In this document: piece by piece, positions 14,227 to 56,372 of the stretch | How the letters are laid out: each line of letters begins with the position of its first letter | How positions within the stretch are numbered: the stretch's first letter is position 1 | DNA from: Bacteroidota bacterium | GTDB taxonomy: Bacteria; Bacteroidota; Bacteroidia; Palsa-948 | NCBI GenBank assembly: GCA_016213435.1 | Contig: JACRAL010000098.1 | Location: 141-64,140 of the forward strand | DNA: 64,000 bases | Direction of reading: 5' to 3' | Notes under the pieces: model-generated | The model's input: the letters and a program-made list of their open reading frames with translations, nothing else | Told to the model about the DNA's origin: nothing | The model's database searches: none | Translations under genes and position numbers: made by a program

Positions 14227-14295
14227 AGGGTTAAAAATTATTCTTTAAAAATTTTATTATCTCTTTTCGTTTTGCATACGCAATTCCTGTGAGTG

Positions 14296-16147: not shown

Positions 16148-16149
16148 TT

Positions 16150-18388: not shown

Positions 18389-18463
18389 TGGCTTTATGTT
18401 AAAAGGTTAATGAACAAAACGTAGGGGCTTCTCATTTTGTGATCCACCCCTTCGTTTGTATTC

Positions 18464-19171: not shown

Positions 19172-19227
19172 TGTTTTTAGTTTTTAAGGGTTAATAATTG
19201 TTTTGGTTTTTTGATTTGATTTTTGGT

Positions 19228-19803
19228 TTATAATATTTCAGCATATTCCACATTCAGCCCTGAAATTTCTGATTCACTTTCTGTATCAACTGCTGAAATT
19301 GGTGTTGAAACAGGAGTGTTTATATTTTCAGGCAAGGCAGGTCGGAACGAATTGTCCTGCAATAGTTTCATAATTTCGTCTTTCGCTTCCCGGTAGTATT
19401 TGGCTTCCAAGGGTCGGTTTTCACTGTCTCCTGCCTCGCCAAGCCCTTCAAAGAGGTCTTTTTTCAGCAGCTTGGCACCGCTGATAACTCCTGAACCAGC
19501 AAAGCCATAGCCGAAACTTTTCACGAAATCATTTTTTCTTCCGAAGTAGATAATGGTGCCTCCGGCTCCGAGCTGCGCTAAGGGTTTGACGATTGTCTTC
19601 CACTGGAATTTGTCAGGGTTGGCAGCATCGGGGGTAACAGGAAGGAATTTATCTACGGCTTTGCCCGCCATGTTTCCTACCCATATTCCCGCTACAATCA
19701 AAAGAGGTTTGCTGCTTTCGCTTAATACTTTTTTTCCTGCCTCTTTTGCTTTTTCAATTCCGCTAAGTCCTTTGGACTTGCATTTTGTTTGTTTATTAGC
19801 CAT
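19228..19803 (-). CDS. hypothetical protein
   Basis: 191-aa ORF with a hydrophobic N-terminal segment. Confidence 0.4.
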   Translation of the reverse strand: MANKQTKCKSKGLSGIEKAKEAGKKVLSESSKPLLIVAGIWVGNMAGKAVDKFLPVTPDAANPDKFQWKTIVKPLAQLGAGGTIIYFGRKNDFVKSFGYGFAGSGVISGAKLLKKDLFEGLGEAGDSENRPLEAKYYREAKDEIMKLLQDNSFRPALPENINTPVSTPISAVDTESESEISGLNVEYAEIL

Positions 19804-19843
19804 TGTTATTTGATTTTTTTAGGTTAATAGATTTGTGATAGTT

Positions 19844-21664: not shown

Positions 21665-22212
21665 ATCATTACTTCCTCCGTAAAAGTTTTGTTGATGTCA
21701 TTCCCGCTGGTGATGACTTCTATTTTCAATTTTCTGCTTGGCTTCTTTCCTGCAAAGCGGGAAGCGAGGTATTTGATAAAGTCAGGCATGACCGGCAAAA
21801 CAGCATTGGCATAGAACACTACGTCCACATCGCTGATAAAAGAAGCGTCTTTCGCTTTGAGCGTAATTTTTTTATCGGAGGGCGTGGAGGTTCCTATGAG
21901 CTTGTTGTTATAGTAAACTTTCAGGTAGGGCTGTGAAACAATAAGGTCTTTGTCGGTAGGATTATCGGCTTTTATGTCTGCCTTGAAAACTACTTTCGGA
22001 ATAGCAAGCCCCAGCCCTTTTAATCCCTGTGATTTAAGGTCGAATCGGTCAATATGAAAATTGAGAGCATCGGCAGTAGCGGAAGTGCTTAAAAGCCGTG
22101 TAAGACCATAAATGCCTGCTGCGGATAAACCGCCAACTATTAATATGGTTCCTGCCTTACTCATCTTTTTTGTTCCTTTTACTTTTGATTTTATGCAGCA
22201 TCCAGTCTCCAA
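21661..22212 (-). CDS. hypothetical membrane-anchored protein
   Basis: 183 aa with N-terminal TM segment. Confidence 0.4.
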   Translation of the reverse strand: METGCCIKSKVKGTKKMSKAGTILIVGGLSAAGIYGLTRLLSTSATADALNFHIDRFDLKSQGLKGLGLAIPKVVFKADIKADNPTDKDLIVSQPYLKVYYNNKLIGTSTPSDKKITLKAKDASFISDVDVVFYANAVLPVMPDFIKYLASRFAGKKPSRKLKIEVITSGNDINKTFTEEVMI

Positions 22213-22381
22213 AAACCTTTACCGCCAGCATAATTGCACCGCCTATGAGCGAGTGAATTGTAAAATCAAACAGTTCACTTGTGCGGATATTCAGCAGAGC
22301 TTGTATGTTAGTTATGTAGTGGGTCATGGCTCCGATGAATCCACCGATAAATGCCAAAAAATTATTTGTACTTCCGTTCAT
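22157..22381 (-). CDS. small two-TM protein (holin-like candidate)
   Basis: 74 aa, two hydrophobic helices and a charged C-terminus KSKRNKKDE. Overlaps neighbouring ORFs, so gene status is uncertain. Confidence 0.25.
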   Translation of the reverse strand: MNGSTNNFLAFIGGFIGAMTHYITNIQALLNIRTSELFDFTIHSLIGGAIMLAVKVFGDWMLHKIKSKRNKKDE

Positions 22382-22405
22382 TTTTTTCTGAGATTAGAAA
22401 AATCG

Positions 22406-22648
22406 TTACAGAGGTTGAGTTTCGGAAGTTGGTTCATCAGGTGAAACAACAGGTTCAACAGGTTGTTCCAATACAACCGGAGCATCGAGGATTTCCCATT
22501 GAAGCGTATTTAAGTCGTATGGAGTACCTCTCTTTATAATGGTTTGTTTTACCGGGTCAATCGTGCCTTCGACAAGAAGTTCAGGCAGTGGGAAGGTCTT
22601 GCGCTCGTTTGAGCCGACTTCTTTGATACTTGCGTTTATGATTTTCAT
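22406..22648 (-). CDS. hypothetical protein
   Basis: 80-aa ORF. Confidence 0.35.
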   Translation of the reverse strand: MKIINASIKEVGSNERKTFPLPELLVEGTIDPVKQTIIKRGTPYDLNTLQWEILDAPVVLEQPVEPVVSPDEPTSETQPL

Positions 22649-31422: not shown

Positions 31423-31497
31423 GGTGGTTGTAGCTCAGTTGGTTAGAGCACTAGATTGTGGTTCTAGGGGTCGCGGGTTCAAGTCCCGTCATCCACC
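31423..31497 (+). tRNA. tRNA-His (anticodon GTG) with genomically encoded G-1; no encoded CCA
   Basis: Cloverleaf read by hand: G-1, acceptor GTGGTTG/CATCCAC, D-arm GCTCAGTTGGTTAGAGC, anticodon stem CTAGA/TCTAG with loop TTGTGGT, T-arm GCGGGTTCAAGTCCCGT, discriminator C. Confidence 0.8.
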
Positions 31498-31694
31498 CTT
31501 CTTCAAATTACATTGCGACTCTGACGCACTAGTACTCCTGCGTCAGTAGTCAGAGTGCAGGTCAAAGCGTCAGCATTCAAGTCCCGTCATCCACCCTTCT
31601 TCAAATTACATTGCGGCTCTGACGCACTAGTACTCCTGCGTCAGTAGTCAGAGTGCAGGTCAAAGCGTCAGCATTCAAGTCCCGTCATCCACCC
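31478..31694 (+). repeat. 98-bp tandem repeat (2.2 copies) seeded in the tRNA-His 3' end; the 21-mer TTCAAGTCCCGTCATCCACCC occurs three times
   Basis: Copies at about 31478-31498, 31576-31596 and 31674-31694. The intervening 77-bp units differ by a single nt and contain the hairpin CTGACGCA-N10-TGCGTCAG. Confidence 0.8.
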
Positions 31695-35473: not shown

Positions 35474-36211
35474 TTATATTTTATCCTTATTTGTTACATA
35501 TAATTCAGGTAATGTTATCTCAGTTACATTATTTACAATGAGGTTGTAGTTTACCATAAATTCTCCTTTAGGTCCCGTTTCTAACCGCTGCCGGATTGGA
35601 TTATCTCTCAAAGAAAGCATTCTTTCTTTATCATAAGGAGCGGCAGTATTTAATGCTATTCCATTCAGGATACCAACAGCACGGGCGATATTATTTTCAT
35701 TGGGATAAAGAAATGTTCCATTATTACCTAAAAATGTATTAACGACAAATCCTACATTTTGGAACATTTCTAAAGTATATTCACCACAAATACCAGTAAG
35801 AGTTTGAAATTTTAATTGATTAATGGCTGATATAGCAGCACGCACCAAAACTACGCTGATTCCTTTTCCTTTTACTTTATTTGAATTCCAAAGCCCGCAT
35901 AATTCTCCCGCACCTCCATCAATTGCATATTTCTTAACTACCTCATAAATTCTGGCATCCATTTTTCCAATGGCGCCTTCTATAGGAAGAGGAAATATTC
36001 CATTGGCTACTTGTATTCGAATTCCACCTACTAATTCATTTGATTCATCGGTTGCAATAAAACAGTAAACATTGGGATTATTTATCCAGTGGTTATTGTT
36101 AGAGGTAATATTCTCAATGCCATAATCTTTTAGTACTTGTACATGACCTTTTATATACTCTTTGCAAGTAGCAGATTCATCAATTGCCCGATATGCTCGT
36201 ATTAGGATCAT
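35474..36211 (-). CDS. GNAT-family N-acetyltransferase candidate
   Basis: 245 aa. VVLVRAAISAI...KGKGIS resembles the acetyl-CoA-binding motif A region. Start abuts the stop of the upstream kinase. Confidence 0.4.
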   Translation of the reverse strand: MILIRAYRAIDESATCKEYIKGHVQVLKDYGIENITSNNNHWINNPNVYCFIATDESNELVGGIRIQVANGIFPLPIEGAIGKMDARIYEVVKKYAIDGGAGELCGLWNSNKVKGKGISVVLVRAAISAINQLKFQTLTGICGEYTLEMFQNVGFVVNTFLGNNGTFLYPNENNIARAVGILNGIALNTAAPYDKERMLSLRDNPIRQRLETGPKGEFMVNYNLIVNNVTEITLPELYVTNKDKI

Positions 36212-36254
36212 ATTATATCGCTATTTGGATATATTGGCTTTTTGGTGAAAAATA

Positions 36255-36410
36255 TGAGCTTTCCGGCAGAGGATATGAGCTTTTCGGTGGACGATTTGAC
36301 ATTTCCTGTAGAGGATTTGAGCTTTCCGGTGGACGATTTGACATTTCCTGTAGAGGATTTGAGCTTTCCGGTATAGGATTTGAGCTTTCCGGTAGACGAT
36401 TTGACATTTA
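36255..36410. repeat. 21-bp tandem repeat, about 7.4 units (GAGCTTTCCGGTGGACGATTT / GACATTTCCTGTAGAGGATTT alternating; 42-bp higher-order period), filling the gap between the ThiF-nitroreductase gene stop and the GNAT gene start
   Basis: Units 2+3 and 4+5 are identical except for one nt. Both strands are open across the array (ORFs 36213-36407 minus and 36184-36441 plus). Confidence 0.8.
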
Positions 36411-38747
36411 TATTATAGAATTTGTGAATTTTAATACTTGATCAAGGGGATATCTTAATGATCTGAATTTCGGGGGATTATCAATTATAAATCGCATTAA
36501 TAGTACTTTTCCTTTTTGAGGATTGATGCCAAATAAATCTTCAAGTTCCTTCAACAAGGTTGTTGCTTCTTTTCGCATGTTATCTGGAAGGGCATCTTTT
36601 TTACCATATACTAAAGTATTAAATATTAAAATTGATAAAGAAGGAGGGTGGGTGGAGATGTTATCATGATTGGCAGCCAGCCATACTCTTTCTAAAGCCC
36701 GACCGCCTTGGTAAAAATTATTGGTTGTGAATGAAGGCACTGTTAACAGCCCGACAGCGGCTGAGCCGCGAATCCACTTGCGTTGAATTTTTCCAAATGC
36801 AGAACCTAATTCCCAATCGGCAAGATGTTTAACAACCGACCAATCTTTGCTTACAAAAAATCCGGCAAATTCTGTTGGAGTTAGATCCATTGTTTCCTGA
36901 AAGCTAATTCCGTTTCTTGTTCTTTCCGCTTCTTCAATAGTCCAACGAGCTTCTCCTCTAAAATCATTATGTCCTCCTTTGCTCAGATACCTGATTCGAT
37001 CCATCTTGGCGGTTATCTCACTTAGTTTAATGAGCTTATCTTCATCATCTATAATAATCATATCTGCTCCGGGAATGGTGCGGGCAATTTCTTGTAGTTT
37101 ATTTAACCTGTTTTTTTCAATTGTTTTTCTTTGTACAATTGTTCTGTTTGATACTCTGGAGTTGATTGTTTTAGATAAGTGGTCGCACACATGGGGTTCC
37201 AGTTTATCTTTTATTTCAGCATGTGCTGTATCAAAAAAACGAAAGGTGGTTATTAATTTTGTATCGTCATTAATTTCCACTGTTTGAGCTGCTACTTCCA
37301 GTCCGAGCTCATGGGCTTTTAATACCAAATTTTCGGCTGCTGCTCCAAGCCCCGTAATCATGGTTGTTCTTTGGCAATCCAATAAATCGGGACGGAACAC
37401 ATCATCAAAAAAGAAGTATAGATTTTTGTTGTGATACATCCATTTCCATGTCTGGCTGTTTGCTCCGGAGGGAGCTTTAGAGGCAGCTTCGGCTAATTGT
37501 TTAATTGTGTTTTCCGGCAGATCAATTTGTAAGTTCCAGGTTTCTTGATGGGCTGAATGGATTATATCTAACATTTCTTTATCACTCAAAGATGGTTTGA
37601 TATTCAAAGGCTGCTCGATATATTCTTTTGTGTTTTTATCTTTTATTACCTCTTCCAGATCCACAAAATATCTTCCCGAATCATGCAGTTGATTCAGCAA
37701 AACTCTTCGGCACACATCCGCACATATTCCCCCGCCCAAAACCACACCCGATGCCAATTGAGGCCAGGTTGTTATTGTTTGTTCAATTTCCAGCATAGAA
37801 GCCCTTAGCCGGGTGGATGAAGTTTCTACTCCTAACATGGGTAACAGATAAGGAACTTTTTCTTCATTGGTCTTGGCCTGTTTTACTAAACTCAAATCCA
37901 AGTGATCAATCAATCCGTGCAAGATTGGTAATTCAGGGTTTAGATCATAGCGCTCTATATCGGTTGTTCCTTTATCGCTTGAATTCATAACAACGGGAAT
38001 ACGCAGTGACTTTGCTTTTTGACGTGTAAATATCTTTGTATACAAACCATCGCATACCTCAATGCATACATCTAACTTGCCATCTTTTAGAAAAAAGTCA
38101 TCTGCATTTGCTTCGGTTAGTCCATCAGAATACCAGGTAACTTTTAAATAAGGATCAATTTCCGAGATTTCTCTGGCTACCACAATCGTTTTTTTAATTC
38201 CAAAGTTTTGAACTCCGGTTTGTATGCGGTTTAGGTTAGAGAGTTCAATAACATCAAAATCTGCAATCCGGAGCTCACTGCATATTCGTTCCATGGCTAT
38301 GGTTAAAGCAATGGCTTTTCCTACAGACAATCCTATTACTCCAATTTTTTTTGTTGCAAGTATTTTTTCCTCCTCAGGAGTTATCTTATAATGATTCCTA
38401 TTTGTTCTTACTTCCACAAATTCTTTTTCATCCAATATATGTATCAACTTTTTTGACCAAGGGTAGTAAACCCAAACACCGTATTCTTCACTCGGTATAG
38501 AGCCAATATGTTTTTTAGCTGCTTCGGTTAAAGCGCTTTTAGTAAATACTATTTTAGGATTTTGAGATTTTACGAGTTCTTCCAATTGCCCCTGAAGCTC
38601 ATCAAATACATTTATATCGGGGGTTTCTTTAAGTAATTGCGTCAGCTTGTTGTTGTCAGAGGCGTTATTTAAGCGAAAAAACAATGGGTAAGCAACTGTT
38701 TCGCTCGATTTAGTTTGTTTGCATAAAATGGCTAATTTATCCTTCAT
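36408..38747 (-). CDS. E1-like (ThiF/MoeB-fold) - nitroreductase-like (SagB-type dehydrogenase fold) fusion protein, Rv1355c/MoeY-like architecture
   Basis: Rossmann KKIGVIGLSVGKAIALTIAMERICSELRIADFDVIELSNLNRIQ (E1-like nucleotide-binding). C-terminal ASKAPSGANSQTWKW is the nitroreductase-family FMN-binding signature. Confidence 0.65.
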   Translation of the reverse strand: MKDKLAILCKQTKSSETVAYPLFFRLNNASDNNKLTQLLKETPDINVFDELQGQLEELVKSQNPKIVFTKSALTEAAKKHIGSIPSEEYGVWVYYPWSKKLIHILDEKEFVEVRTNRNHYKITPEEEKILATKKIGVIGLSVGKAIALTIAMERICSELRIADFDVIELSNLNRIQTGVQNFGIKKTIVVAREISEIDPYLKVTWYSDGLTEANADDFFLKDGKLDVCIEVCDGLYTKIFTRQKAKSLRIPVVMNSSDKGTTDIERYDLNPELPILHGLIDHLDLSLVKQAKTNEEKVPYLLPMLGVETSSTRLRASMLEIEQTITTWPQLASGVVLGGGICADVCRRVLLNQLHDSGRYFVDLEEVIKDKNTKEYIEQPLNIKPSLSDKEMLDIIHSAHQETWNLQIDLPENTIKQLAEAASKAPSGANSQTWKWMYHNKNLYFFFDDVFRPDLLDCQRTTMITGLGAAAENLVLKAHELGLEVAAQTVEINDDTKLITTFRFFDTAHAEIKDKLEPHVCDHLSKTINSRVSNRTIVQRKTIEKNRLNKLQEIARTIPGADMIIIDDEDKLIKLSEITAKMDRIRYLSKGGHNDFRGEARWTIEEAERTRNGISFQETMDLTPTEFAGFFVSKDWSVVKHLADWELGSAFGKIQRKWIRGSAAVGLLTVPSFTTNNFYQGGRALERVWLAANHDNISTHPPSLSILIFNTLVYGKKDALPDNMRKEATTLLKELEDLFGINPQKGKVLLMRFIIDNPPKFRSLRYPLDQVLKFTNSII

Positions 38748-40915: not shown

Positions 40916-41127
40916 GTTAAGTGTAAAGTTAAGGATTTTTATTTTGAGTGAAACGAAAATTCATTCCTTACTTCCCGTTCCACAAACACTCTTCCTCATG
41001 TTGTTTGATAAGCACGCCCTGTTTTGCGGAACGGTGTAATAATTCAGGATAACCTGCATAGATTTTTGGATAGTATCTGACACAGATACGTGAACCTGCT
41101 CTTTAAAAGTTAATTCATCGGATGGTT

Positions 41128-41480
41128 CTACTTATTCCTCTGCTTTTTGAATCAACAAAGCGGATGATTTTATTCATTCCTCTGCGTTTTGAATTGCTTC
41201 CTCCGATCATGCTATTCATTCCTCCGCTTTTTGAATCAACAAAGCGGATGATTGTATTCATTCCTCCACCTTTTGAATTATTTCATCCGATAATGCTATT
41301 CATTCCTCGGATTTTTGAATTAACAAAGCGGATGATCCTATTCATTCCTCTTCTTTTTGAATTGCTTCCTCCGCTTTTTGAATAAACAAAGCGGATGATT
41401 GTATTCATTCCTCCACCTTTTGAATTATTTCATCCAATCATGCTATTCATTCATCCACTTTTTGAATCATATCCTCCTAT
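41128..41480. repeat. degenerate tandem array, about 42-bp subunits (TATTCATTCCTC-N5-TTTTGAAT-N17) alternating two variants, giving an 84-bp period with about 4 copies
   Basis: TATTCATTCCTC occurs about 9 times and CTTTTTGAATCAACAAAGCGGATGATT four times. The ORF 41122-41385 is a repeat artefact. Confidence 0.7.
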
Positions 41481-41631
41481 GGTGCTACCATGGTGCAAAA
41501 TAAGGCAAGTAAAATGAGATGGCTTAGGGCTTTAAAGCGTAAGCGTATGGGAGTAAAAAAATAAAAAGAGACAAATGAATGCATTTGACTCTTTTTATTT
41601 CTATCGGGTGAAAGATAGAACTTGCAATCAA

Positions 41632-41675
41632 TTAGGGCTTCTTAGGAAACTTAGCTAAAATCCTTGTTAAGCGTT
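41632..41675. repeat. degenerate copy of the last ~35 bp plus stop of the C1-peptidase gene (encodes ...ILAKFPKKP* versus genuine ...ILVKFPKKP* at 43287-43320)
   Basis: ttagggcttcttaggaaacttagctaaaatcc versus ttaaggtttcttgggaaacttaactaaaatct. Confidence 0.55.
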
Positions 41676-41752
41676 GAAACACTCTGAGAGATTTGTGTGG
41701 TATGTTTTTCCATTTCATACGAAAACATTCCTATTTATTCCTGCAATTTATA

Positions 41753-43024
41753 TTATTTATCCGGGTTTAATCTTTTAGGATGGCATGCTGATAATACTAT
41801 TATCATTAAGAAAGTACCAACAGTAATTGTTTTATAATGCTGAGAAATATAACTTAGATGCCGACCAATTATACCATCTGTAGTTAAGATTGCCAAAATA
41901 AAATACAGAACAATCAGCAGCCACATTAGTGTGTTTGTGTTTCTTGAAAATACGATCCTATTATAGGAAAAAATTAAAAAATATATAACGTATAAAATCG
42001 CAGGTGCGATAAAAAAGAAAGCATATTTCTGTTGATGAGGAAATATAAGGGGAGTAATACAGAAGATATAGCTCAATTCCCATAGTGTATGAAGTTTTGT
42101 TCTGGATTTAATAAAAGGAGGGAATTTTAAGAAATATAACGTCATACAAATGAAAAATAATCTTCCTCCGTTTAAAACAATAGGAAATATATCTTTTTGT
42201 AAAACAATAATAGTGCTTCTGTATAAAATGTCCCTCTTGCCTGCATCAGTAAAATATGTGGTAATAAATCCGGAAAGGCTATGAATACCTTCTCCATTAT
42301 CGTATACAAGCTCAGGATTATTAAAGTTGATAATATTCCACCAGTCTGTCAATAATAGTTTGTTGAATTCCCAGCCATAAATTATGACAGGTAGAAATAA
42401 AAATACTATCAGGCAAACAACTGCTATTATAACAGGTTTGATTTGTTTGCGATAAAGAAAGTAGGGAATCATAATGATGGGCATTATTTTTACTATAATC
42501 CCAACTGAGATTAAAATCCCGCTTAATATGTATTTATTATTTTTTAGTTGGTAGGTTGCTTCAAGGCAACAATAAAGAAGAAAAATAGTCATTTGAACCA
42601 TTTCAAAATTATTAAGAACAAATCTTGAGGTCAAAATCACGGATAATATTACCCATAATCGGTATTGCTTTGTAGTAAGAGAGGAAAGGGGCAAGTACCA
42701 ACGAATTATTTTAAAAAGGCGGTATAAGAAAAAGAGATTGGCGAACAACCATAGAACTTGTGCAGTTGGATATGGAAAAAATGTAAATGGTATTAGAAAT
42801 ATTGCAAAGAGAGGGCTATAGCTATAACCGCAATAATCGTCTACGCCAAGGTATATCCATACATTATAACAATTCTTTCCTTCTCTCAGTAATTCTGCAG
42901 CTCCCATGTAGATTTGAAAATCTCCTCCCGCGTATGCCTGAATGAAACAATAAGCTATAACCAGAATAGCTGCCAATACCCTCACACATGTAATCGCCAT
43001 ACGGCTGCAATAAAAATTTCTCAA
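41753..43024 (-). CDS. polytopic membrane protein, GT87/DUF2029-like glycosyltransferase candidate
   Basis: 423 aa with about 11 TM helices, Tyr/Phe-rich loops. Confidence 0.4.
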   Translation of the reverse strand: MRNFYCSRMAITCVRVLAAILVIAYCFIQAYAGGDFQIYMGAAELLREGKNCYNVWIYLGVDDYCGYSYSPLFAIFLIPFTFFPYPTAQVLWLFANLFFLYRLFKIIRWYLPLSSLTTKQYRLWVILSVILTSRFVLNNFEMVQMTIFLLYCCLEATYQLKNNKYILSGILISVGIIVKIMPIIMIPYFLYRKQIKPVIIAVVCLIVFLFLPVIIYGWEFNKLLLTDWWNIINFNNPELVYDNGEGIHSLSGFITTYFTDAGKRDILYRSTIIVLQKDIFPIVLNGGRLFFICMTLYFLKFPPFIKSRTKLHTLWELSYIFCITPLIFPHQQKYAFFFIAPAILYVIYFLIFSYNRIVFSRNTNTLMWLLIVLYFILAILTTDGIIGRHLSYISQHYKTITVGTFLMIIVLSACHPKRLNPDK

Positions 43025-43286
43025 TAGAATAAATTAAATCTTTTAGATATGGGTTAGTGTAATGAGTCGAAATAAAAAGTCCAATAACCGTTTTTATGAT
43101 TTTTAGAATTGAATTTGCTTAAAATATCGTTGAAGGTCTGCCCGAATGATATCAGACCGAAGAATAAAATTATCAATGTAAAGATAAACTCTTGTGAAGA
43201 AGAGAAAATCCAGCTGATTTAATCTACTGCGTCATCTGCATTTCATTTTTTATCACTACTGTGTTTTTAGAGGTTCCCATTATTGA

Positions 43287-44555
43287 TTAAGGTTTCTTGG
43301 GAAACTTAACTAAAATCTCTTTCACTGCATCTTTATGAATGGTATAAGTGGTCATTTTTAATTTGATAAAATCTTCGTGCATGAACCAATAACCCGGTGC
43401 GGAGCGGTTGTTGTGTCCGCTGCTGCCTGAGTCTTTGATCAAATACCAGGTTCCGTTTGTTTTTTCTTCATACCCAACCAAGTGCATGGCATGGTCATCG
43501 GTGGTAGAGCCATTTGAAAAACGCATCTGGCGTGCATACTCATCAATGTATGCCGATGGGATATCGTAAGTGGGCACCATGATGACTCCTGATTTGCTAT
43601 CCATGCCGCTTTCTGAAACATCGCCTCCAATGGACATGGAATATCCATTCTTTATGGCATTTTTTACGATACTCATGAAATCATTCAGCGGAACATTGTA
43701 ATAATCTGCCGAATGCCACCAATTATCGGCCACTTTATATTCTGCCTGAGTCCAATAAGGAGCTTCCATCAAACTCATAAAGTCAACATAGTCATCGGGA
43801 TTTAATTTAGCAACATTCTTCAAGTATTCAAGAGGGGTTATTTTCTTTCCCGCAAGTGTTACGGTTGTTGGCGGCTCGCCCAAATAAAAGTTCATAATTG
43901 ATTTTATGGTGGAGATAACTTCCTCGGTGTTCCATGCGTTGGAAGCTTTAACTCCTTGCAGATAATTTTTCATTTCCTGCACCATCTTTCTATGGTCATG
44001 ATAAGATTGTCCGATTTTCATTCCGGTGTATGCCTCAAGCGGAACGATGCCATATTTTTTCATCATGCCGGCAACTGCGTTTGTTTCAGATCCTTCGTCA
44101 AAAAGAGAGACACCGCGTGTGCGTACAAATTCTTTTGCTTTTTCCACATATTGCCAGTAAAAGGTAAATGCCTCTGATAGCTGAATGTCCTGATTGCTCA
44201 GGCGTTTAATTTCTGATTCGTAAAAAGAGGTGGTGGAAAAGCACCAGCATGTGCCGGTTGATCCCTGAGATACGGGCTGTTGAGCAAATACGGTTTTGAA
44301 TTCTGCAAAAGATTTAGGAACATCTATTCCTGTAAAATCCATGCGGAAGGACAATGGTTTCTCTGCTTTTGGTGCTTCAAATGCATCAATCCCTTTTTGG
44401 ATCTGTTCGTAAAACTCATTTGATCTCTGTTTAAATTCTGCTTTGTCTTTTCTGTCTTGAGCGAATGTGTTCATGCAGCTCAATACTGCAAACACCACTG
44501 CGCTTGTGGAGATGATTCGTTTTTTCATAATAAGTAGAATATTTTTTTTTGACAA
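43287..44555 (-). CDS. papain-family (C1) cysteine peptidase, aminopeptidase C/bleomycin-hydrolase-like, secreted
   Basis: Signal peptide. Active-site QGSTGTCWCFS, and a His region GHAMHLVGYEE. Confidence 0.7.
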   Translation of the reverse strand: MSKKNILLIMKKRIISTSAVVFAVLSCMNTFAQDRKDKAEFKQRSNEFYEQIQKGIDAFEAPKAEKPLSFRMDFTGIDVPKSFAEFKTVFAQQPVSQGSTGTCWCFSTTSFYESEIKRLSNQDIQLSEAFTFYWQYVEKAKEFVRTRGVSLFDEGSETNAVAGMMKKYGIVPLEAYTGMKIGQSYHDHRKMVQEMKNYLQGVKASNAWNTEEVISTIKSIMNFYLGEPPTTVTLAGKKITPLEYLKNVAKLNPDDYVDFMSLMEAPYWTQAEYKVADNWWHSADYYNVPLNDFMSIVKNAIKNGYSMSIGGDVSESGMDSKSGVIMVPTYDIPSAYIDEYARQMRFSNGSTTDDHAMHLVGYEEKTNGTWYLIKDSGSSGHNNRSAPGYWFMHEDFIKLKMTTYTIHKDAVKEILVKFPKKP

Positions 44556-44598: not shown

Positions 44599-46197
44599 TC
44601 AAAAATCAGAATAGTGATTTGTAATTCCGGTTTTGATGCCTATAAAGAAGAAGTTGGAATTAAAAGATGAAGTTGAATTTCTTTCCTGTCTTACTGCTAC
44701 ACCGGCTTCTGCCATTAAATCAGATGAAGGAATCAGGCAATACGAGAGTTTTACCTGCATGTAATGCAAGTTGGTTTTTATTCCCTGCGCCAAATAATTT
44801 CCGTATTCCTTCTTTTGTGCTGTGTATGAAAGAAAAATATTGTTTCCCAGATTTCTTCCTCCAACAGAGTCTTTGCCGTAAACGGCATAAAGAAATTCTG
44901 TTTCAAATGTCCATCTTTTGTAGCGGTAATGAAGGAATGAAACCGATTCTGCAAAGTCTGCTCCAAGCGGATGTGCCAGAGGCTGGTTGTAGTTTGCATA
45001 GTTCTGCTGAACGCTTCCGTGTGTGTAAGTAAATGGGCGTGCATAATTTATTTCTGTCTGGAAGAAAAGATTTCTTAATGTAAACAGATCAAAACTCTTG
45101 AAGCCAAGCTGCAATCCGTATTTATTCCCCCACCATCCCCAATGGTGTTTTGTATTTGGGAATATGTCGTGAAAGATATCCGCTCCCATTTCTTTGAGTA
45201 AAAACTCATCTATCATAAATTGCCCGTAAAACTGTTGTTTCTTTGCAACTTTCTCTTTGAAAGAAATGCCCATCAGCACATTGTCGGATGAACCGAGAGA
45301 ATATTCTACCGGACGGTAAAAAATAATTGGATTGAGGTAGCTTACATCAAAGCTCCGGCTGCGGTTTTCATCAGCACCTTGCCAGATAACAGATTCAAAA
45401 AGTCCAAGGTTAAAACGCTTGGTTACATTCCAGCTCAGGTAATGAAAGCTTCCGAATTTATTTTTGAAATCATTTTTCATGCCGGAAGCTGCGGTAATGT
45501 CCTTGAATTCCGCAAATAAACAAACGTATTTTATCTTCCAGAGGGTAGTGGATATTTTTAAAAAAGGATAAGAATTAGATACATCCGATAAAAACATGGA
45601 TCGGTAGCCGTCTCCCAAAAAGTTTTTGTCTTTTCCGAACTGGAAATTGAATATTTTGTTTGGAGAGTAAGACAGATAGCCTGAATAATACTGGTAAGAA
45701 TAAGCATTATCTGTGCCATGCGCCTTTCCTAAACCGGGTATAACACCGGTTCGTTTAATGAACGTATCAATGTATGCCGGAAAGGAGGAAACAGCAGCCA
45801 GAAAATTTAATGAGTAATATAGTTTTGGAGTAAAAATATTTCCACCGCCCATGAAACCTATTGAAGATTGGAAACTTGTTTGATGATTCTTTAAATCATA
45901 TCCTGCTTCAAGATTCAAAAGAGGAGTGCCGCAAAAGTTCAGTTGTTTTTTGGAAGCAGGAATATTTGCCGTTTTTTCGGATGCAATTTTATTTGTGGAA
46001 TCAACTGCTGAAGGTGCTTTGCTTTGTTGTGCGGGTTCCCAAAGAAATGGTTTTATGGATGAATGAAATTTCGCATTAGAATCTTGCGATCTTTCTGCTA
46101 CATAATTCCTTTCCTTTTCAAGCACAAGATATTGTTGAGAGAAGGAGAGAGAGGGAAACAGGCAAGAGGCGGTAAGCAGCAGGCAATAAAGTCTCAT
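44599..46197 (-). CDS. outer-membrane beta-barrel protein (Wzi-like capsule-assembly family candidate), paralog of ORF 47536-49257
   Basis: Signal peptide, alternating beta-strand pattern, C-terminal aromatic residue. Shares GDGYRS(M/L)(F/L)LSD and YNQPLAHPLGA(D/N)F with the paralog. Confidence 0.4.
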   Translation of the reverse strand: MRLYCLLLTASCLFPSLSFSQQYLVLEKERNYVAERSQDSNAKFHSSIKPFLWEPAQQSKAPSAVDSTNKIASEKTANIPASKKQLNFCGTPLLNLEAGYDLKNHQTSFQSSIGFMGGGNIFTPKLYYSLNFLAAVSSFPAYIDTFIKRTGVIPGLGKAHGTDNAYSYQYYSGYLSYSPNKIFNFQFGKDKNFLGDGYRSMFLSDVSNSYPFLKISTTLWKIKYVCLFAEFKDITAASGMKNDFKNKFGSFHYLSWNVTKRFNLGLFESVIWQGADENRSRSFDVSYLNPIIFYRPVEYSLGSSDNVLMGISFKEKVAKKQQFYGQFMIDEFLLKEMGADIFHDIFPNTKHHWGWWGNKYGLQLGFKSFDLFTLRNLFFQTEINYARPFTYTHGSVQQNYANYNQPLAHPLGADFAESVSFLHYRYKRWTFETEFLYAVYGKDSVGGRNLGNNIFLSYTAQKKEYGNYLAQGIKTNLHYMQVKLSYCLIPSSDLMAEAGVAVRQERNSTSSFNSNFFFIGIKTGITNHYSDF

Positions 46198-47535: not shown

Positions 47536-49257
47536 CTAAAAATCGTAATAAACATTGTTCAGAGAAGTGCGGATTCCAAAGTAAATGAAGTTGGTTTGAG
47601 AGTTTTCAATTGTGCTTGTGCTGCTTCGGTTTGAAATTCCAACCAAAATATTAAAGTTTGTTGCAGGATTTATAAGATAGCCGATATGAAAATCGAAAAT
47701 CCGTAGCGTTGTTTTTATGCCTTGTCCCATTTCATTGTGGGTAGAATTTACTCCATATAAAGCATTGTTATCTGAACTGAAAATGTTATTGCCGTAATTT
47801 CTTCCGAGAGAATCTTTGCCGATGATGGCATAATTCACTTTTACTTCAGTAAAGAGATTTCCGATGCGATAATTCAGGAAAGCAATTGCTTCTTTGAAAT
47901 TTGCTCCGAGCGGATGTGCCAGTGGCTGGTTGTAATGCGTGTAGCTCTGAGCAGATTTTTTTGAAGCATACGAATAAGGACGAACTTGGTTGTACTCGAC
48001 TTGCAAGTGCAGATTTCGTAATCCGAACAAGTCGAAATATTTTGCTCCTGCCTGAAACCCTTGTTTATTATGCAATGAATTTCTTGTAAAATCCTTTGAG
48101 ATGTCATCCAGCATGTATTGTCCGTAGAGGGAAATTGAATTAGTGATCTTGCATTTCAATGTCCATCCGAGCAACACGTTGTTTGTTCCCGCCAATCCTT
48201 CGGAGAGTGCAGCATTATAAATAAGCGGACTGAAATAATTAAAGTTCAAATCTTGCTTGTTCATCGAATCGCTTGCCTGCCAGACAATCCCTTGAAAAAA
48301 ACCTAATTGAATTCTCTTGTTGATATTCCAGCTCAGGAATTGAAAATTTCCTGCTTTCTTTTGGAATAATCTTTCTGTGCCGGGAGGAGTCTTTACTCCT
48401 CCATCCGTCAAATTCATGAACACAGTATAGAGATTTGTGTACTGAAATTTTCCAAAAGAAGAAGCGACACGCAGAAAAGGATAATTGAACGCATTGTCGC
48501 TCAGCAAAAGCGAGCGGTAGCCATCTCCAATAAAATGTTTTCCGATACCTGCTTGAAAATTAAAATACTTGCTTGGGGAATAGGAAACGTATCCTGAAGC
48601 CATCGCAAAGTCATAGCCGTTGGTTTTAAATCTTTTCCATCTGCCTTGGCCCGGCACAACCAAGGAAGCATTATTGAAGTCCTGTATGTAATTAACAAAG
48701 GTTGCTTGATTTTCAAGAAAAGAACTTTCAAAAGAAAAGTTTTTTCCTATATCTCCGCGCAGCAAAATTCCACGCATGTTCTTGTAAAATGATTTTGAAG
48801 AATCCGCACGATCTCTTCCATATTCAAAGTTAAAAAGGGGGTCAATGGTGAGGTGGAATTTGTCGGTGGTATCGTTGACGATGAAAAGATTTTCTTTTCT
48901 AAATTTAGTTCCAATTTTTTTCCAAAAGGTGTTTTGGTATATTTTTTCTGAATGCCAAGTGTTAGAAATAATTGGTTTGAAACAGGATGTAGAATCAACA
49001 TTATAATAAGCGACACCGTATCCTCCCCATGCACTTCCCCATGAATCAATTGCGTCACTTTTCCATTTGATTGTATCTGCATGTGAGTTAATTAGAGATC
49101 GATTTTTTTCTCTTCCCAAGCTCCATTCCCTATTCAAGGGCAAATTTTTTTGCTGAGAAAAGAGAAAGATTGGAAAAAAAATAAATAGTCCCGTTAGGGA
49201 CATAATATTTATAGAAAAAATGTCCGCAGATGTATTTGAGTTCTGTAGGAACGACAT
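47536..49257 (-). CDS. outer-membrane beta-barrel protein, paralog of 44599-46197 (true start probably the Met near 49203, MSLTGLFIFF)
   Basis: See paralog. A REP hairpin overlaps the probable start codon. Confidence 0.4.
   Translation of the reverse strand: MSFLQNSNTSADIFSINIMSLTGLFIFFPIFLFSQQKNLPLNREWSLGREKNRSLINSHADTIKWKSDAIDSWGSAWGGYGVAYYNVDSTSCFKPIISNTWHSEKIYQNTFWKKIGTKFRKENLFIVNDTTDKFHLTIDPLFNFEYGRDRADSSKSFYKNMRGILLRGDIGKNFSFESSFLENQATFVNYIQDFNNASLVVPGQGRWKRFKTNGYDFAMASGYVSYSPSKYFNFQAGIGKHFIGDGYRSLLLSDNAFNYPFLRVASSFGKFQYTNLYTVFMNLTDGGVKTPPGTERLFQKKAGNFQFLSWNINKRIQLGFFQGIVWQASDSMNKQDLNFNYFSPLIYNAALSEGLAGTNNVLLGWTLKCKITNSISLYGQYMLDDISKDFTRNSLHNKQGFQAGAKYFDLFGLRNLHLQVEYNQVRPYSYASKKSAQSYTHYNQPLAHPLGANFKEAIAFLNYRIGNLFTEVKVNYAIIGKDSLGRNYGNNIFSSDNNALYGVNSTHNEMGQGIKTTLRIFDFHIGYLINPATNFNILVGISNRSSTSTIENSQTNFIYFGIRTSLNNVYYDF
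49188..49201. repeat. REP element GTCCC-GTTA-GGGAC 3' of the RAYT gene
   Basis: Perfect 5-bp stem. Inverted orientation relative to the REPs at 49761-49824. Confidence 0.6.
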
Positions 49258-49258: not shown

Positions 49259-49720
49259 TTATTGTATTTCTTTTAAAACATACCGTTCATCGTACTCAAC
49301 ATTAAATTTCTGTAACAATTTCGTGTATTTTTCTTTGAATGTCCTTTTCTGATGATGATGCTCCTGATTATTGATGTATTTAACAACCCTGTCAATATGA
49401 GAGTGAGAATAAGAAAATGCACCATAACCTTCCTGCCATTTGAATTTGCCTTTCACAAATCCTTTTTTATTAATCCAGCCGGAAGAATTTCCCTTAATGT
49501 CTTGCAGTAAATCCGGAATTAATTGGTGTGGCTTGTAGCCAATAAAAATATGAATGTGATCAGCCACGCCATTGATTGCAATCAATTTGTGTTTATTGTT
49601 TTGCACTATGCCTGTAATATATTTATACAACTCATCCTTCCATGAATTATTAATCAGGGAAATTCTATCTTGAACGGAAAATACAAATTGAATGTATAAT
49701 TGGGTGTATGTATTTGCCAT
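49259..49720 (-). CDS. IS200/IS605-family Y1 (HUH) transposase, REP-associated tyrosine transposase (RAYT)-like
   Basis: 153 aa. HUH motif DHIHIFI and GYGAFSYS...YINNQEHHH C-terminal Tyr helix, characteristic of Y1 transposases. Flanked by REP hairpins. Confidence 0.75.
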   Translation of the reverse strand: MANTYTQLYIQFVFSVQDRISLINNSWKDELYKYITGIVQNNKHKLIAINGVADHIHIFIGYKPHQLIPDLLQDIKGNSSGWINKKGFVKGKFKWQEGYGAFSYSHSHIDRVVKYINNQEHHHQKRTFKEKYTKLLQKFNVEYDERYVLKEIQ

Positions 49721-52780: not shown

Positions 52781-52908
52781 GATGAGATTCAAAGGTAGGT
52801 ATAAAAGCATTTTCAACACAGAGTGTGCAAGCACAAATGAAGTTTTACAGAGGAATGCAGGTAAAACATCTTTCGTATTTTCGTGCAAATTCGTTATTCG
52901 AAGATTTT

Positions 52909-53964
52909 ATGCTTGAAGATAAAAACCCCGCCCGCACTGAACTTTCCAAGCTTGGAGAGTTTGGATTGATCAAACACATTGCTGAACATATAAAACTCAG
53001 CAATCCTTCTTCTGTAAAAGGAATTGGTGATGACGCTGCTGTAATTAAATATGACGATGGCAAACAAACTGTTGTTACGACTGACATGCTTCTCGAAGGT
53101 GTGCATTTTGATCTGAGTTATTGCCCGCTGAAACATTTGGGTTATAAAGCGGTGTCTGTAAATGTTTCCGACATCTATGCGATGAACGCATCGCCAAAAC
53201 AAGTTCTGGTTTCCATTGCCATGTCGAATCGTTTTTCTCTTGAGGCGATTGAGGAATTATATGCTGGAATGCTGCTTGCCTGTGAAAGACATGGTGTTGA
53301 TCTGGTGGGCGGTGATACAAATTCTTCGCGCTCCGGATTAATAATCAGTATTACAGCGATTGGTCAAGCGGATAAAAACGAGATCGTTTGCCGCAGCGGT
53401 GCCAAGCCGACAAACTTGCTTTGTGTTTCGGGTGATCTGGGTTCAGCGTATTTGGGTTTGCAGATCCTTGAACGGGAGAAAAAAATATTCATGGAGAATC
53501 CGCAGATACAACCTGATATGGAAGGAAATGATTATTTGCTTGAGCGACAACTGAAACCCGAAGCGAGAAAAGACATTATTGCGCAACTGGGAGAGAATGG
53601 CGTGCAGCCCACTTCGATGATAGATATTTCTGACGGACTGGCATCGGAAACGCTTCACCTTTGTACCGAATCAAATGTGGGATGCCGTTTGTATGAAAAC
53701 AAAATCCCGATTGACGAAGTTGCAATGCTGCGTGCACAGGAATTTAATTTGAATCCAACCATGTGCGCGCTGAGCGGGGGAGAGGATTACGAATTGCTTT
53801 TTACAATTGACATTAAAGACCACGACAAAATAAAAAAGTGCAAGGATGTTACCGTGATCGGACACATCACTGAAAAAGCAGAAGGCGCAAACTTAGTTCT
53901 CACCGGAACAGAAATGCTTACACCGCTTACTGCTCAGGGCTGGGATGCGTTGTTGAAGAGGTAA
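52909..53964 (+). CDS. thiL: thiamine-monophosphate kinase (ORF track starts 52825; MLEDKN start is more likely)
   Basis: PurM-like fold with ThiL signature IGDDAAV and the DLVGGDT motif. Confidence 0.7.
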   Translation: MLEDKNPARTELSKLGEFGLIKHIAEHIKLSNPSSVKGIGDDAAVIKYDDGKQTVVTTDMLLEGVHFDLSYCPLKHLGYKAVSVNVSDIYAMNASPKQVLVSIAMSNRFSLEAIEELYAGMLLACERHGVDLVGGDTNSSRSGLIISITAIGQADKNEIVCRSGAKPTNLLCVSGDLGSAYLGLQILEREKKIFMENPQIQPDMEGNDYLLERQLKPEARKDIIAQLGENGVQPTSMIDISDGLASETLHLCTESNVGCRLYENKIPIDEVAMLRAQEFNLNPTMCALSGGEDYELLFTIDIKDHDKIKKCKDVTVIGHITEKAEGANLVLTGTEMLTPLTAQGWDALLKR

Positions 53965-54000: not shown

Positions 54001-54585
54001 TTATTGGGATTCTGCCCTTAAAATATAATTTTTTCCTATGTCAAATCGCCTTTCCTTATTTCTTTTACCTATTAGCCAAGCTGTTCCTGTTAATAAAATA
54101 CCTGTTGAAAAAAAGATAGAAAAACCTTTTAAGTTAAATGGTTTTCCTTTTTCATGGGCAAGTCCTGCGGGTACTGAACCAAGTATTGTCATTATACCCA
54201 TAAAAGATAAAGCAAATGAATTATAAGCATTACTTGTTACTTTTTTAGCTCTTGTAATTTCTAAAGTCTTAATCTCATTAGTTGGTATTGCAACAATATT
54301 TCCTGGCCTACAAAAGTTTTCAAAGTATTCTGTAATTATTAATGTGTCCTTTCTCGTTTTATAAAGTCCATAGTTGTGTATTGAGAAGAAGGAATCATTT
54401 TTTAAAGTAAGGCCTATTGGTCTGCCTACAGAATATTTATTTGTTTTGTTGGATATGTTATTCACAATAACTATTGATTGAGAATATGAATTGTCAATTA
54501 AAAGAAGAAATGATATTAAGAATAGGGATCTCATAATTATGTATAAATTCGATATATATGTAAATCCGATTCTTTCGTGTTGCAA
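54001..54585 (-). CDS. hypothetical membrane protein
   Basis: 194 aa with N- and C-terminal TM helices. Confidence 0.35.
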   Translation of the reverse strand: MQHERIGFTYISNLYIIMRSLFLISFLLLIDNSYSQSIVIVNNISNKTNKYSVGRPIGLTLKNDSFFSIHNYGLYKTRKDTLIITEYFENFCRPGNIVAIPTNEIKTLEITRAKKVTSNAYNSFALSFMGIMTILGSVPAGLAHEKGKPFNLKGFSIFFSTGILLTGTAWLIGKRNKERRFDIGKNYILRAESQ

Positions 54586-54611
54586 ATATAAAGTATTCTC
54601 ATAAGATATTT

Positions 54612-54720
54612 TTTATTTATCCTTAATCTGAGCAATCTTCTTTAGCAAAACACTCACTGCTTTTCTTCCTTTTGTTCCCAGTGATATTGAATATTTATTC
54701 ACGTAAAGATGAATGTGCTA
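54612..54720. repeat. degenerate copy (about 93%, ~108 bp) of the 3' end of the mqnD-like gene, located on the far side of the carbonic anhydrase gene
   Basis: ttatttatccttaatctgagcaatcttctttagcaaaacactcactgcttttcttccttttgttcccagtgatattgaatatttattcacgtaaagatgaatgtgct matches 55514-55622. Confidence 0.8.
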
Positions 54721-54728
54721 TTTTAAAA

Positions 54729-55427
54729 TTATTCTATGAAACTTACACTTCCTGTTTCAATATCATAGAATGCTCCAATGATCTTCAGCTTTTTTTCGTT
54801 CACCATCTCGCTGATAATTTCGCTTCTGTTTAAAATATCTTTAATGGTATTTTTTACATTGTTTTGTGCGGTTTCGTCAATAATATTTGCGTTAGTAGAG
54901 TCAGAGGTAATTGCGGGTTTTATCTGATCTACTAATTGGGTTAAATTTCCGAGATGAATATTTTTTACAGCGCCTGTTACTGCGCCACAATGGCTGTGAC
55001 CCATCACCACAATAAGTTTTGCACCGGCATGTTCAGTGGCATATTCCATGCTTCCCAGCATGTTCTCGTCTTCAATATTTCCTGCAACGCGCACGGCAAA
55101 AATATTTCCGATTCCCTGATCAAAAATAATTTCAGGAGGCACTCTTGAATCCATGCAGGAAAGAATTACCGAATGGGGTTTTTGTCCTCCTTTGGTCAGC
55201 GCGATCTGTTCTTTGTAGTTGGTGTTTATCAGCTTGTTCTCGAGAAACCTTTTGTTTCCGTTTTTTAACTCCTGAACGGCATCGTCAGAAGAATTAACAG
55301 TCACCGCTGCGCTGGTGCTTACTGTGTCTTTTACTTGTGTTTGATTCGTTTCATTGCTTTTTTGATTGCATGAAACTGCAAAGCAAAAAAGAATGCTTGC
55401 GAGAAAAAATGTTTTTAGATTTTTCAT
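54729..55427 (-). CDS. beta-class carbonic anhydrase, secreted/lipoprotein (single-gene cassette between repeat copies)
   Basis: Zn ligand motifs SCMDSRV and HSHCGAV. Signal peptide with SC lipobox. Confidence 0.8.
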   Translation of the reverse strand: MKNLKTFFLASILFCFAVSCNQKSNETNQTQVKDTVSTSAAVTVNSSDDAVQELKNGNKRFLENKLINTNYKEQIALTKGGQKPHSVILSCMDSRVPPEIIFDQGIGNIFAVRVAGNIEDENMLGSMEYATEHAGAKLIVVMGHSHCGAVTGAVKNIHLGNLTQLVDQIKPAITSDSTNANIIDETAQNNVKNTIKDILNRSEIISEMVNEKKLKIIGAFYDIETGSVSFIE

Positions 55428-55513
55428 GATTAGGTTGTTTTAAGAATAGTAAATTGGTTTTATATTTATAGTTCTTTTAACGGTTGAGTTGAAATCATCG
55501 CAAAAATAATCCT

Positions 55514-55622
55514 TTTATTTGTCCTTAATTTGAGCAATCTTCCTCAGTAAAACACTCACTGCTTTTCTACCTTTTGTTCCCAGTGATATTGAATATTTAT
55601 TCACGTAAAGATGGATGTGCTG
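55514..55622. repeat. authentic 3' end of the mqnD-like gene; partner of 54612-54720
   Basis: See 54612-54720. Confidence 0.8.
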
Positions 55623-56372
55623 TTTGATCACTTCATCATCCATTTCCTGTGCGTTTTTTTTTATAAATGCTTTGCTTGAGTTGGGATTAGCAAAAGCAAA
55701 CTCCACGCTTCTGCGGATAATGCGTTCGACTTTTTTTTGAATTTCCTTTGGAAAACTTTTGTTGATGGCAATTCCTCCGAGGGGAATGGGTGATTTTGTT
55801 TTTTTCTCCCACCAGTTTCCAAGATCAATTACTTTCTTCAATCCCTTTTGTTTATAAGTGAAACGACTTTCATGAATGATCACTCCCAGATCAAACTTTC
55901 CTTTCAGCACCGCGTCTTCAATTTCAGAAAAAAGAACTTCGATTTTGTTTTTCAGTTTGGGATAAGCAAGTGAGAAGAGGAGATTGGCGGTGGTGTTTTT
56001 TCCGGGGATGGCAACACGTAAGTTAGAAGTTAGAAGTTTAAGGTTTAAAGTTGAAACAACCAAAGGTCCAACACCAAAGCCAAGTGCTGAACCTGAATCA
56101 AGTAAAGAATATTTATCTTGAACTTGTGAGAAAGCAAAAAAACTAATTTTTGTAATATCAAGTTGCTTTTTTGTCGCCTTCCCTTCGGGAAGGTCGGGAT
56201 GGGCTGCCCTTCTGTTCAATGCTTCTACATCTTCAATTATCGCTTTGAATTTTAATCCTTCGGTGTCTACTTTTCCATGAAGCATTGCATGGAAGATGAA
56301 GCAATCATTGGGGCAGGGAGAAAATCCGAGGGTTAATGGAAGATGGCTGATGGTTGATGGAATGCGTTTCAT
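55515..56372 (-). CDS. mqnD: MqnA/MqnD-family menaquinone (futalosine pathway) biosynthesis protein, most like 1,4-dihydroxy-6-naphthoate synthase MqnD
   Basis: N-terminus LTLGFSPCPNDCFIFHAMLHGKV...EDVEALN and GPLVV ... IPGKNTTANLL fit the MqnD periplasmic-binding-like fold. Ortholog comparison is from memory. Confidence 0.6.
   Translation of the reverse strand: MKRIPSTISHLPLTLGFSPCPNDCFIFHAMLHGKVDTEGLKFKAIIEDVEALNRRAAHPDLPEGKATKKQLDITKISFFAFSQVQDKYSLLDSGSALGFGVGPLVVSTLNLKLLTSNLRVAIPGKNTTANLLFSLAYPKLKNKIEVLFSEIEDAVLKGKFDLGVIIHESRFTYKQKGLKKVIDLGNWWEKKTKSPIPLGGIAINKSFPKEIQKKVERIIRRSVEFAFANPNSSKAFIKKNAQEMDDEVIKQHIHLYVNKYSISLGTKGRKAVSVLLRKIAQIKDK
56177..56193. repeat. perfect GC-rich palindrome CCTTCCC-TTC-GGGAAGG in-frame in mqnD-like gene (encodes DLPEGKA)
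   Basis: Read directly. 7-bp stem in an otherwise AT-rich gene. Confidence 0.5.

Follow-up and report, generated by a model that had tools for sequence, protein, structure and literature searches.

A carbonic anhydrase gene behind mqnD in a Bacteroidota genome lies between two copies of the mqnD 3' end

Results

This work deals with a beta-class carbonic anhydrase (CA) gene, and with the direct repeats that enclose it, in a stretch of 64,000 nucleotides (hereafter the window) from the metagenome-assembled genome (MAG) of a Bacteroidota bacterium (assembly GCA_016213435.1, contig JACRAL010000098.1, positions 141 to 64,140). On the minus strand the locus comprises, in order, a 4HBT thioesterase gene (56803-56369), mqnD (55515-56372), a spacer, the CA gene, a second, displaced mqnD 3' end and an open reading frame (ORF) of 194 codons, ORF194, and it is followed by the convergent thiL gene on the plus strand (52825-53964, recognized by its Pfam AIRS domain and by synteny). 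The mqnD gene, which is the intact target of the insertion, codes for the 1,4-dihydroxy-6-naphthoate synthase of the futalosine pathway (NCBI MBI4946340.1) and matches PF02621 over residues 13-280 of 285 (E 1.3e-70). Between its stop codon and the start of the CA gene lies an AT-rich spacer of 87 nt (55428-55514; G+C content, GC, 0.25). The cargo gene itself (54729-55427, 699 bp, MBI4946339.1) matches PF00484 (E 3.8e-41) and has the same GC as mqnD, 0.385. Its translation bears a lipoprotein-type signal peptide as well as the CxDxR and HxxC zinc motifs, and the cargo is predicted to be a periplasmic beta-carbonic anhydrase.

The 3' end of mqnD is present twice at this locus. A repeat search, in which this was the sole strong local family, found direct repeats of 113 nt at 54611-54723 (copy A) and 55513-55625 (copy B), both on the minus strand, 902 nt apart and identical at 105 of 113 positions (93%). 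This bears out the preliminary description of this DNA, in which the CA gene was flanked by repeats of about 108 bp, one of them the mqnD 3' end, and its coordinates were correct to within 1-3 nt. Copy B, the functional end of mqnD, contains the last 36 codons of the gene and reaches 2 nt past the stop codon. Copy A is displaced and untranslated: it begins 6-9 nt past the CA stop, opens with TAG instead of the CAG of copy B, and is without a start codon, its reading frame being intact after this initial TAG, through to the same TAA as in copy B. The alignment of the two copies contains eight mismatches, no indel and a perfect core of 44 nt (54668-54711, equal to 55570-55613) that encodes HLYVNKYSISLGTKG, which is conserved among homologues, as is the C-terminal segment of MqnD among relatives. 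When the 3 kb downstream of mqnD were searched with its 3' end by local BLAST, the match reached 165 bits (E 7e-45), the best control match being 25 bits.

Both genes that separate mqnD from thiL are preceded by a possible promoter. In the 87-nt spacer, TATTTTTG (55508-55501, minus strand) fits the Bacteroidetes -7 promoter consensus TAnnTTTG and is a putative CA promoter. The same -7 motif is matched by TATATTTG, within 54586-54610 on the minus strand, ahead of ORF194 (54001-54585, minus strand, GC 0.29), which has no Pfam match and is predicted to encode a secreted or membrane protein. As a TAnnTTTG match thus follows both mqnD termini at 10-35 nt, the CA gene and ORF194 may each own a promoter that abuts an mqnD stop.

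Faulty scaffolding is not a likely source of the repeat structure at mqnD and CA. The CA protein, in its exact form, was found only in this MAG and in one Logan contig of 918 bp (L001), which was assembled independently from the reads of SRR12113407 in a k=31 graph. L001 is 100% identical to the window from copy B through the spacer and the CA gene to the beginning of copy A; it bears copy-B-specific variants at one end and copy-A-specific variants at the other, and it breaks solely within the 44-nt identical core, where a k=31 graph must branch. Since it spans from the variants of copy B into those of copy A, the junction between CA and copy A is present in the reads. It could still be argued that the assembly strung together two strain variants of the mqnD end, given that the genome is a MAG, that the copies resemble strain alleles and that a tandem repeat in another MAG (L043, see below) could be of this kind. 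However, a contig built from reads links copy-B variants, spacer, CA and copy-A variants at 100%, the region of a second such case in the window (the peptidase/GT87 case, below) is matched at 100% identity by an independent Logan contig of 8.5 kb (L169), and a third case recurs in a different sample. An assembly artefact, which had been named beforehand as an outcome that would undo the observation, is therefore scarcely credible, L001 reproducing both junctions. The k=31 graph itself fits an integrated copy and a 902-bp circle with an empty site equally well, and does not resolve the phasing of the core.

Comparison with relatives indicated that the CA gene was gained at a variable site. In the eight family-level relatives that offered enough sequence around mqnD (L002, L004, L005, L006, L082, L084, L085, and L090), mqnD directly abuts the convergent thiL, and the thioesterase gene precedes mqnD, except in L006, whose contig begins inside mqnD. 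CA and ORF194 are thus both insertions relative to these relatives, at a spot that varies between lineages; indeed, four other loci (L083, L003, L087, and L089) have other, unrelated genes in this place behind mqnD. This is in line with the earlier suggestion that CA was inserted with duplication of the mqnD terminus and that the incoming DNA provided a replacement 3' end, a proposal that is supported. The empty site predicted at the same time, with mqnD directly followed by the ORF at 54001-54585, was not seen in relatives, mqnD abutting thiL in the eight loci. ORF194 constitutes a second insertion between mqnD and thiL, without repeats, and it gave no tblastn match in loci L001-L161, the mqnD loci of relatives included.

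No mqnD repeat was found in L083, L003, L087, and L089 despite the other insertions behind mqnD, and a recurrent attachment (att) site at the mqnD terminus was rejected on these grounds. An apparent repeat match in L003 corresponds to two paralogous tail domains of the type IX secretion system (T9SS), a different phenomenon. The closest homologues of the CA protein (68-73% identical; best L162, L163, and L166) all have different neighbors and no flanking repeats. The idea of CA as a travelling cassette was rejected, these homologues being in unrelated, repeat-free contexts.

The differences between the two copies are mostly of the kind tolerated by a working gene. The eight mismatches comprise one boundary difference (CAG/TAG), six synonymous third-position changes and one AGG/AAG change (R/K), at a position where natural MqnD homologues differ as well; six of the seven in-frame differences are thus synonymous. 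Seven are transitions, of both kinds, and one is a T/A transversion. A diversity-generating retroelement was discarded, as the mismatches are not adenine-specific and no reverse transcriptase occurs among the neighboring genes. The synonymous bias was evaluated against a null model in which the copies were identical at the start, copy A then drifting neutrally and copy B accepting synonymous changes only. At the mqnD locus alone, p was ~0.09. Adding the peptidase case (three synonymous differences, one not) gave 9 of 12 synonymous (p ~0.04, our estimate from computed rates); in L043, 8 of 9 coding differences are synonymous (p 0.012), and the three together reach 17 of 21, the boundary CAG/TAG being counted as non-synonymous. 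This synonymous bias, together with the lack of indels in copy A, suggests an allelic origin, i.e., that both copies are two alleles, each of which would have been a working gene end until the event.

Within the window, mqnD is not the only gene with this layout. Each long ORF was scanned for a match between its last 150 nt and the 3 kb downstream, as the preliminary description had called for on a genome-wide scale: 3 of the 58 window genes have a recurring 3' end (mqnD, an AAA_24 ATPase gene and a C1-peptidase gene), against 1 of 1325 genes (L043) in other Bacteroidota loci that total 1.48 Mb (Fisher p = 3e-4), a contrast that may be inflated as the comparison set consists mostly of core regions around mqnD. 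Similar architectures had been indicated near 3180-3826 and 41632-43320, and they are real, at 3183-3253/3746-3816 and 41631-41662/43286-43317, respectively.

In the first of these, the displaced and decayed 3' end of the AAA_24 ATPase gene (5313-3745, minus strand) lies at 3183-3253 (minus strand), the working copy being at 3746-3816; the relic has two 1-nt deletions and is found beyond a convergent cargo gene that encodes a DUF7793 protein (3341-3727, plus strand). The region at 3745-22648 (minus strand) encodes a 1715-aa Strawberry-notch-type helicase fused to RadC, an N6/N4 DNA methylase, an SLT lytic transglycosylase and the AAA_24 ATPase. Homologues of the latter (L167 and L168) adjoin RteC, HTH_17 and primase-like genes of Bacteroidota conjugative-element backbones, and 3745-22648 has the appearance of a segment of an integrative conjugative element (ICE) of Bacteroidota. 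The genes at 322-3162 (ArsR, methyltransferase, DsrE, and heavy-metal-binding-domain protein) are maybe cargo of this ICE.

The homologous elements give this case a history. L167, from another sample and 93% identical, shares the layout and the upstream junction, and its DUF7793 gene overlaps the working 3' end by 4 nt, an overlap which shows that the new 3' end and the cargo came in as one contiguous donor block. L168, a 79% relative, lacks the DUF7793 gene and has its 3' end only once. Past the relic, the three elements have unrelated DNA. The relics of the window and of L167 are 73% identical, their flanks 92-94%, and we considered independent site-specific insertions in the two ICEs, the relics being 27% and the flanks 6-8% apart. 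This was rejected: the number of synonymous substitutions per synonymous site (dS) between the two AAA_24 genes is 0.44, which explains the gap and indicates that the relics have been decaying neutrally after a single ancestral event. The insertion is thus not recent; it is old and has been passed on within a family of ICEs. This history also demonstrates that the empty state exists (L168) and that relics are long-lived, with no recurring mechanism required.

In the second, the last 10 codons of the C1-peptidase gene (44555-43287) are displaced to 41631-41662 (minus strand), beyond a GT87 cargo gene (43024-41753), the working copy being at 43286-43317. The repeat measures 32 nt, with a longest identical run of 9 nt. 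Just beyond this relic is a tandem array (41109-41509) of 42-, 63- and 84-nt repeats with 71-87% matches, in which the 87-codon ORF at 41122-41385 is spurious.

The tRNA-His gene (31424-31498) was also reported as bearing a cargo-less version of this layout. A cargo-less version it is, but not a simple duplication: at 31478-31694 (plus strand) there are three copies of the final 21 nt of the tRNA, with two hairpin-rich units of 77 nt between them and the tRNA terminator after the third copy, so that the whole repeat unit is 98 nt. The 77-nt units are 99% identical, full of CTGAC/GTCAG hairpin arms and found nowhere else in the window. The 307 nt at 31424-31730 fold far better than shuffled sequences (z = -6.6). 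An Rfam scan returned the tRNA only. An integrase beside tRNA-His was rejected, as the adjoining gene encodes a hybrid histidine kinase. A tandem repeat of ~91% identity in L043 (5641-5919; Chitinophagaceae MAG JBDTKK010000357.1) comprises the final ~105 nt of a lolE/FtsX-type permease gene and ~65 nt downstream, and this is either a cargo-less form of the same scar or a strain-merging assembly artefact. Since such cargo-less versions exist (tRNA-His and L043), the duplication appears to be independent of any cassette.

The four cases of the window agree in where the repeat ends. The repeat ends 2 nt past the stop codon in mqnD, 4 and 1 nt past it in the other two protein-coding genes, and exactly at the 3' end of tRNA-His. 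Cargo orientation differs between cases, and cargo GC is 0.29-0.32 for DUF7793, GT87 and ORF194, against 0.385 for CA. No motif common to the four repeats was seen by eye. Pfam revealed no integrase or recombinase in most of the larger window genes, six short ORFs being unscanned, and the only transposase-family match of the window, an IS200-like Y1_Tnp at 49259-49720, lies 5 kb from the mqnD/CA locus.

Several further features of the window deserve mention. This IS200-like Y1 (HUH) transposase gene (minus strand; PF01797, E 2e-26) stands alone inside a polysaccharide-synthesis cluster that includes GT4, Wzi-like, GDP-mannose dehydratase and epimerase genes. In the same part of the window, an 84-nt direct repeat of 75% identity (44923-45006 and 47866-47949) is shared by the Wzi-like gene (44599-46197) and an unannotated gene of 573 aa (47536-49257), which are probably distant paralogues. 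At 36210-36445, ~7-11 tandem units of 21 nt are found between a GNAT-like gene (35474-36211) and a gene for a 779-aa ThiF-plus-nitroreductase fusion (36408-38747); the minus strand of this array would encode the heptad repeat KSSTGKL/KSSTGNV, possibly a precursor peptide for a ThiF/SagB-type modification enzyme.

Discussion

We lean, with modest confidence, toward an insertion-duplication at the mqnD/CA locus, in which DNA from a relative diverged by ~7% would have entered by homologous recombination on one side and by an illegitimate join on the other. The donor would be a closely related bacterium whose mqnD differed by ~7% and whose chromosome carried, contiguously, the 3' part of mqnD, the 87-nt spacer and the CA gene. 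The donor segment may have recombined homologously inside the resident mqnD, and an illegitimate join, perhaps at an AAA microhomology, would have connected its other end, a few bases past the CA stop, with the resident gene near codon 250. The product would be a hybrid mqnD with the donor 3' end (copy B), followed by the donor spacer and CA; the last 36 codons of the resident gene would remain as a silent relic (copy A), still linked to ORF194 and thiL. Recombination between the two copies, for which the 44-nt core is long enough if it is of the RecA type, could now remove CA again as a 902-bp circle. Similarity would stop at the gene end because donor and recipient were homologous only up to there, and the mqnD-thiL site could well differ between the two, as relatives vary at this very place. 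The match in GC between CA and mqnD suggests a donor of similar composition. From a mechanistic point of view, this one-sided recombination explains the allelic-looking differences, the varied lengths and ages of the repeats and the existence of cargo-less versions. The repeats of the window measure 21-113 nt and diverge by 0-20%, in keeping with separate events that each happened once. Two further points speak for this reading, namely the ICE case, in which the new 3' end and the cargo formed one block, and the lack of an integrase among the Pfam-scanned genes, of transposase ends and of a motif common to the repeats. That only 3' ends are used may be put down to selection: a 3' end stays silent when displaced, but a 5' end takes a promoter with it and yields a truncated product.

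Homology-facilitated illegitimate recombination with insertion-duplication is a process described in Acinetobacter and Streptococcus pneumoniae. On the reading given above, the mqnD/CA locus would resemble it in having one homologous anchor and one illegitimate join, with foreign DNA caught beside the anchor, no need for a recombinase or a specific site, a one-off character and variable lengths. It differs in that the laboratory cases mostly delete recipient DNA, whereas here a recipient segment was retained as a duplication, and in that the join is here less than 10 nt from the cargo stop, with minimal microhomology. A literature search on this process accompanied by duplication gave nothing relevant.

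Several observations weigh against this proposal. The presumed donor arrangement was not observed, CA being beside mqnD in none of ~160 other mqnD loci. The nearest identities were 81% for MqnD, in GTDB species genomes, JGI metagenome contigs and a collection of 5.8 billion proteins, and 72% for CA, in that last collection, with nothing closer that could stand for the donor or the recipient allele; exact look-ups of MqnD and ORF194 gave no further contig. Microhomology at the CA/copy A junction amounts to 3 nt at most (the possible AAA), and none was seen at the ICE junction. The synonymous excess at mqnD, taken alone, does not reach significance. No 5'-end duplication was found in the window, all four cases being 3' ends, a bias for which a random process needs selection, and in each of the four fewer than 100 nt of inserted DNA accompany the cargo, a neater trimming than would be expected of fragments with random ends. 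The 3' bias and the tight trimming of the inserts are not fully explained by one-sided recombination.

An origin in situ can also be envisaged, in which CA was inserted after the mqnD stop by break repair or template switching that re-copied the last 108 nt, copy A thereafter diverging neutrally and copy B under selection. This scenario dispenses with a donor that carries mqnD beside CA, an arrangement seen in no other genome; the statistical weakness of the mqnD bias would be in line with it, as would the ICE relic, which shows that a displaced end can persist for long while decaying neutrally (73% relic identity against a dS of 0.44). Yet copy A shows six synonymous changes and one conservative change with no indel, the pooled synonymous bias (17 of 21) speaks against it, and an insertion at 0-5 nt from the gene end in four cases needs coincidence or selection. 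We therefore regard such an origin, and with it the divergence in place that it entails, as unlikely.

The preliminary description had favored a Campbell-type event, i.e., the integration of a small circle carrying CA and the 108-nt mqnD terminus by a single homologous crossover, with a possible cycle of excision and integration. The final structure at mqnD is exactly what such an event would leave, so that at this locus it is indistinguishable from one-sided recombination with an illegitimate join, the allelic-looking differences fit it too, the perfect 44-nt core exceeds the minimal length for RecA-type exchange, and the k=31 Logan graph is compatible with a 902-bp circle and an empty site. 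However, a non-replicating circle of 902 bp itself needs an illegitimate event to form, the 32-nt repeat of the peptidase case offers only 9 nt of uninterrupted identity, and the 98-nt unit at tRNA-His is too short for a double-stranded circle. The circle thus accounts for the product at mqnD and is implausible for the 32-nt and 98-nt cases, and we hold it to be rather unlikely as the origin of the mqnD/CA locus. Campbell integration, as practiced in the laboratory in insertion-duplication mutagenesis, likewise places a homologous segment as direct repeats around the insert, but it depends on a circular intermediate, and nothing in the data points to one.

Bacterial elements that target gene 3' ends offer another parallel. 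Among them are e14 and phage 21 in icd, the islands of tRNA genes, ICEs in fda or guaA, and the integrase-less cis-mobilizable elements (CIMEs). They have in common with the present locus the repeats of the target 3' end, a diverged and mostly synonymous replacement, a similarity that ends with the gene and a silent terminus beyond the insert. They differ from it in that no integrase occurs in or near this insert, which carries a single cargo gene of 699 bp, and in that four targets without a common core are found here in 64 kb. Copies A and B could accordingly be read as attL/attR-type sites of a site-specific element at the mqnD 3' end, with CA as a remnant or as a mini-element mobilized in trans, in the manner of CIMEs. 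The layout would be a classical one, with a sharp upstream boundary, an identical core nearby, a divergent and mostly synonymous stretch and similarity up to the stop codon, and at tRNA-His it is the segment from the T-loop to the 3' end, a typical att core, that occurs three times. But the Pfam-scanned window genes include no tyrosine or serine recombinase, the insert comprises a single gene and fewer than 100 nt besides, each of the four targets would require a specificity of its own, as the repeats have no common motif, and the other insertions behind mqnD in relatives come without an mqnD repeat. Such a site-specific origin seems decidedly unlikely to us.

On the features tested, the locus lies outside the families of integrons, diversity-generating retroelements and transposons. 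Like integron cassettes, single-gene units have been inserted successively at a defined place; unlike them, the flanking repeats are pieces of the neighboring gene and the cargo appears to own its promoter. No IntI integrase was detected among the Pfam-scanned window genes, there is no attI site and, in the search for an attC site, no inverted repeat was found between the CA stop and copy A, where only weak, distant inverted pairs occur (22 nt, 73%). A transposon was rejected because the insert has no terminal inverted repeats and no transposase, and because the duplication measures 108-113 nt rather than 2-14 bp. Another likeness comes from the mobile ORFs of atp6 in Allomyces, which are fungal mitochondrial elements that bring a replacement C-terminus and displace the resident one. 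They too produce a hybrid gene with a foreign 3' end, an inserted ORF and an untranslated resident 3' end, but theirs encode homing endonucleases that drive their spread, whereas CA, DUF7793 and GT87 are without a nuclease.

It may finally be asked whether this lineage uses gene termini as homology tags, single genes being moved by small circles in a recombinase-free, integron-like manner. A gene lying between the working and the displaced copy of its neighbor's 3' end would leave as such a circle, through recombination of the two copies, and would enter the genome of any relative at the same gene end. If true, such shuffling would account for the four sites in 64 kb, for the exclusive use of 3' ends and for the tight trimming of the inserts. 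We consider it very unlikely. Nor is a recurrent mechanism that inserts single-gene cassettes behind gene stops, as proposed earlier, supported by the data: the Pfam-scanned window genes include no recombinase, the repeats show no shared motif, the cargo varies in orientation and the CA homologues have repeat-free surroundings. We see no evidence for a dedicated cassette system.

Conclusion

The mqnD/CA locus is a further example of a familiar recombination scar, in a lineage without close sequenced relatives, and, being one locus, it serves mainly as an illustration and brings in no new principle. It provides a base-resolved view of a single accessory gene entering a bacterial chromosome without mobile-element machinery. 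Displaced gene termini are possible datable markers of gene gain, in line with the neutral decay of the ICE relic. If such scars were common in the full genome and in its relatives, they would offer a gauge of one-sided recombination, relative to integrases and transposases, in uncultured Bacteroidota.

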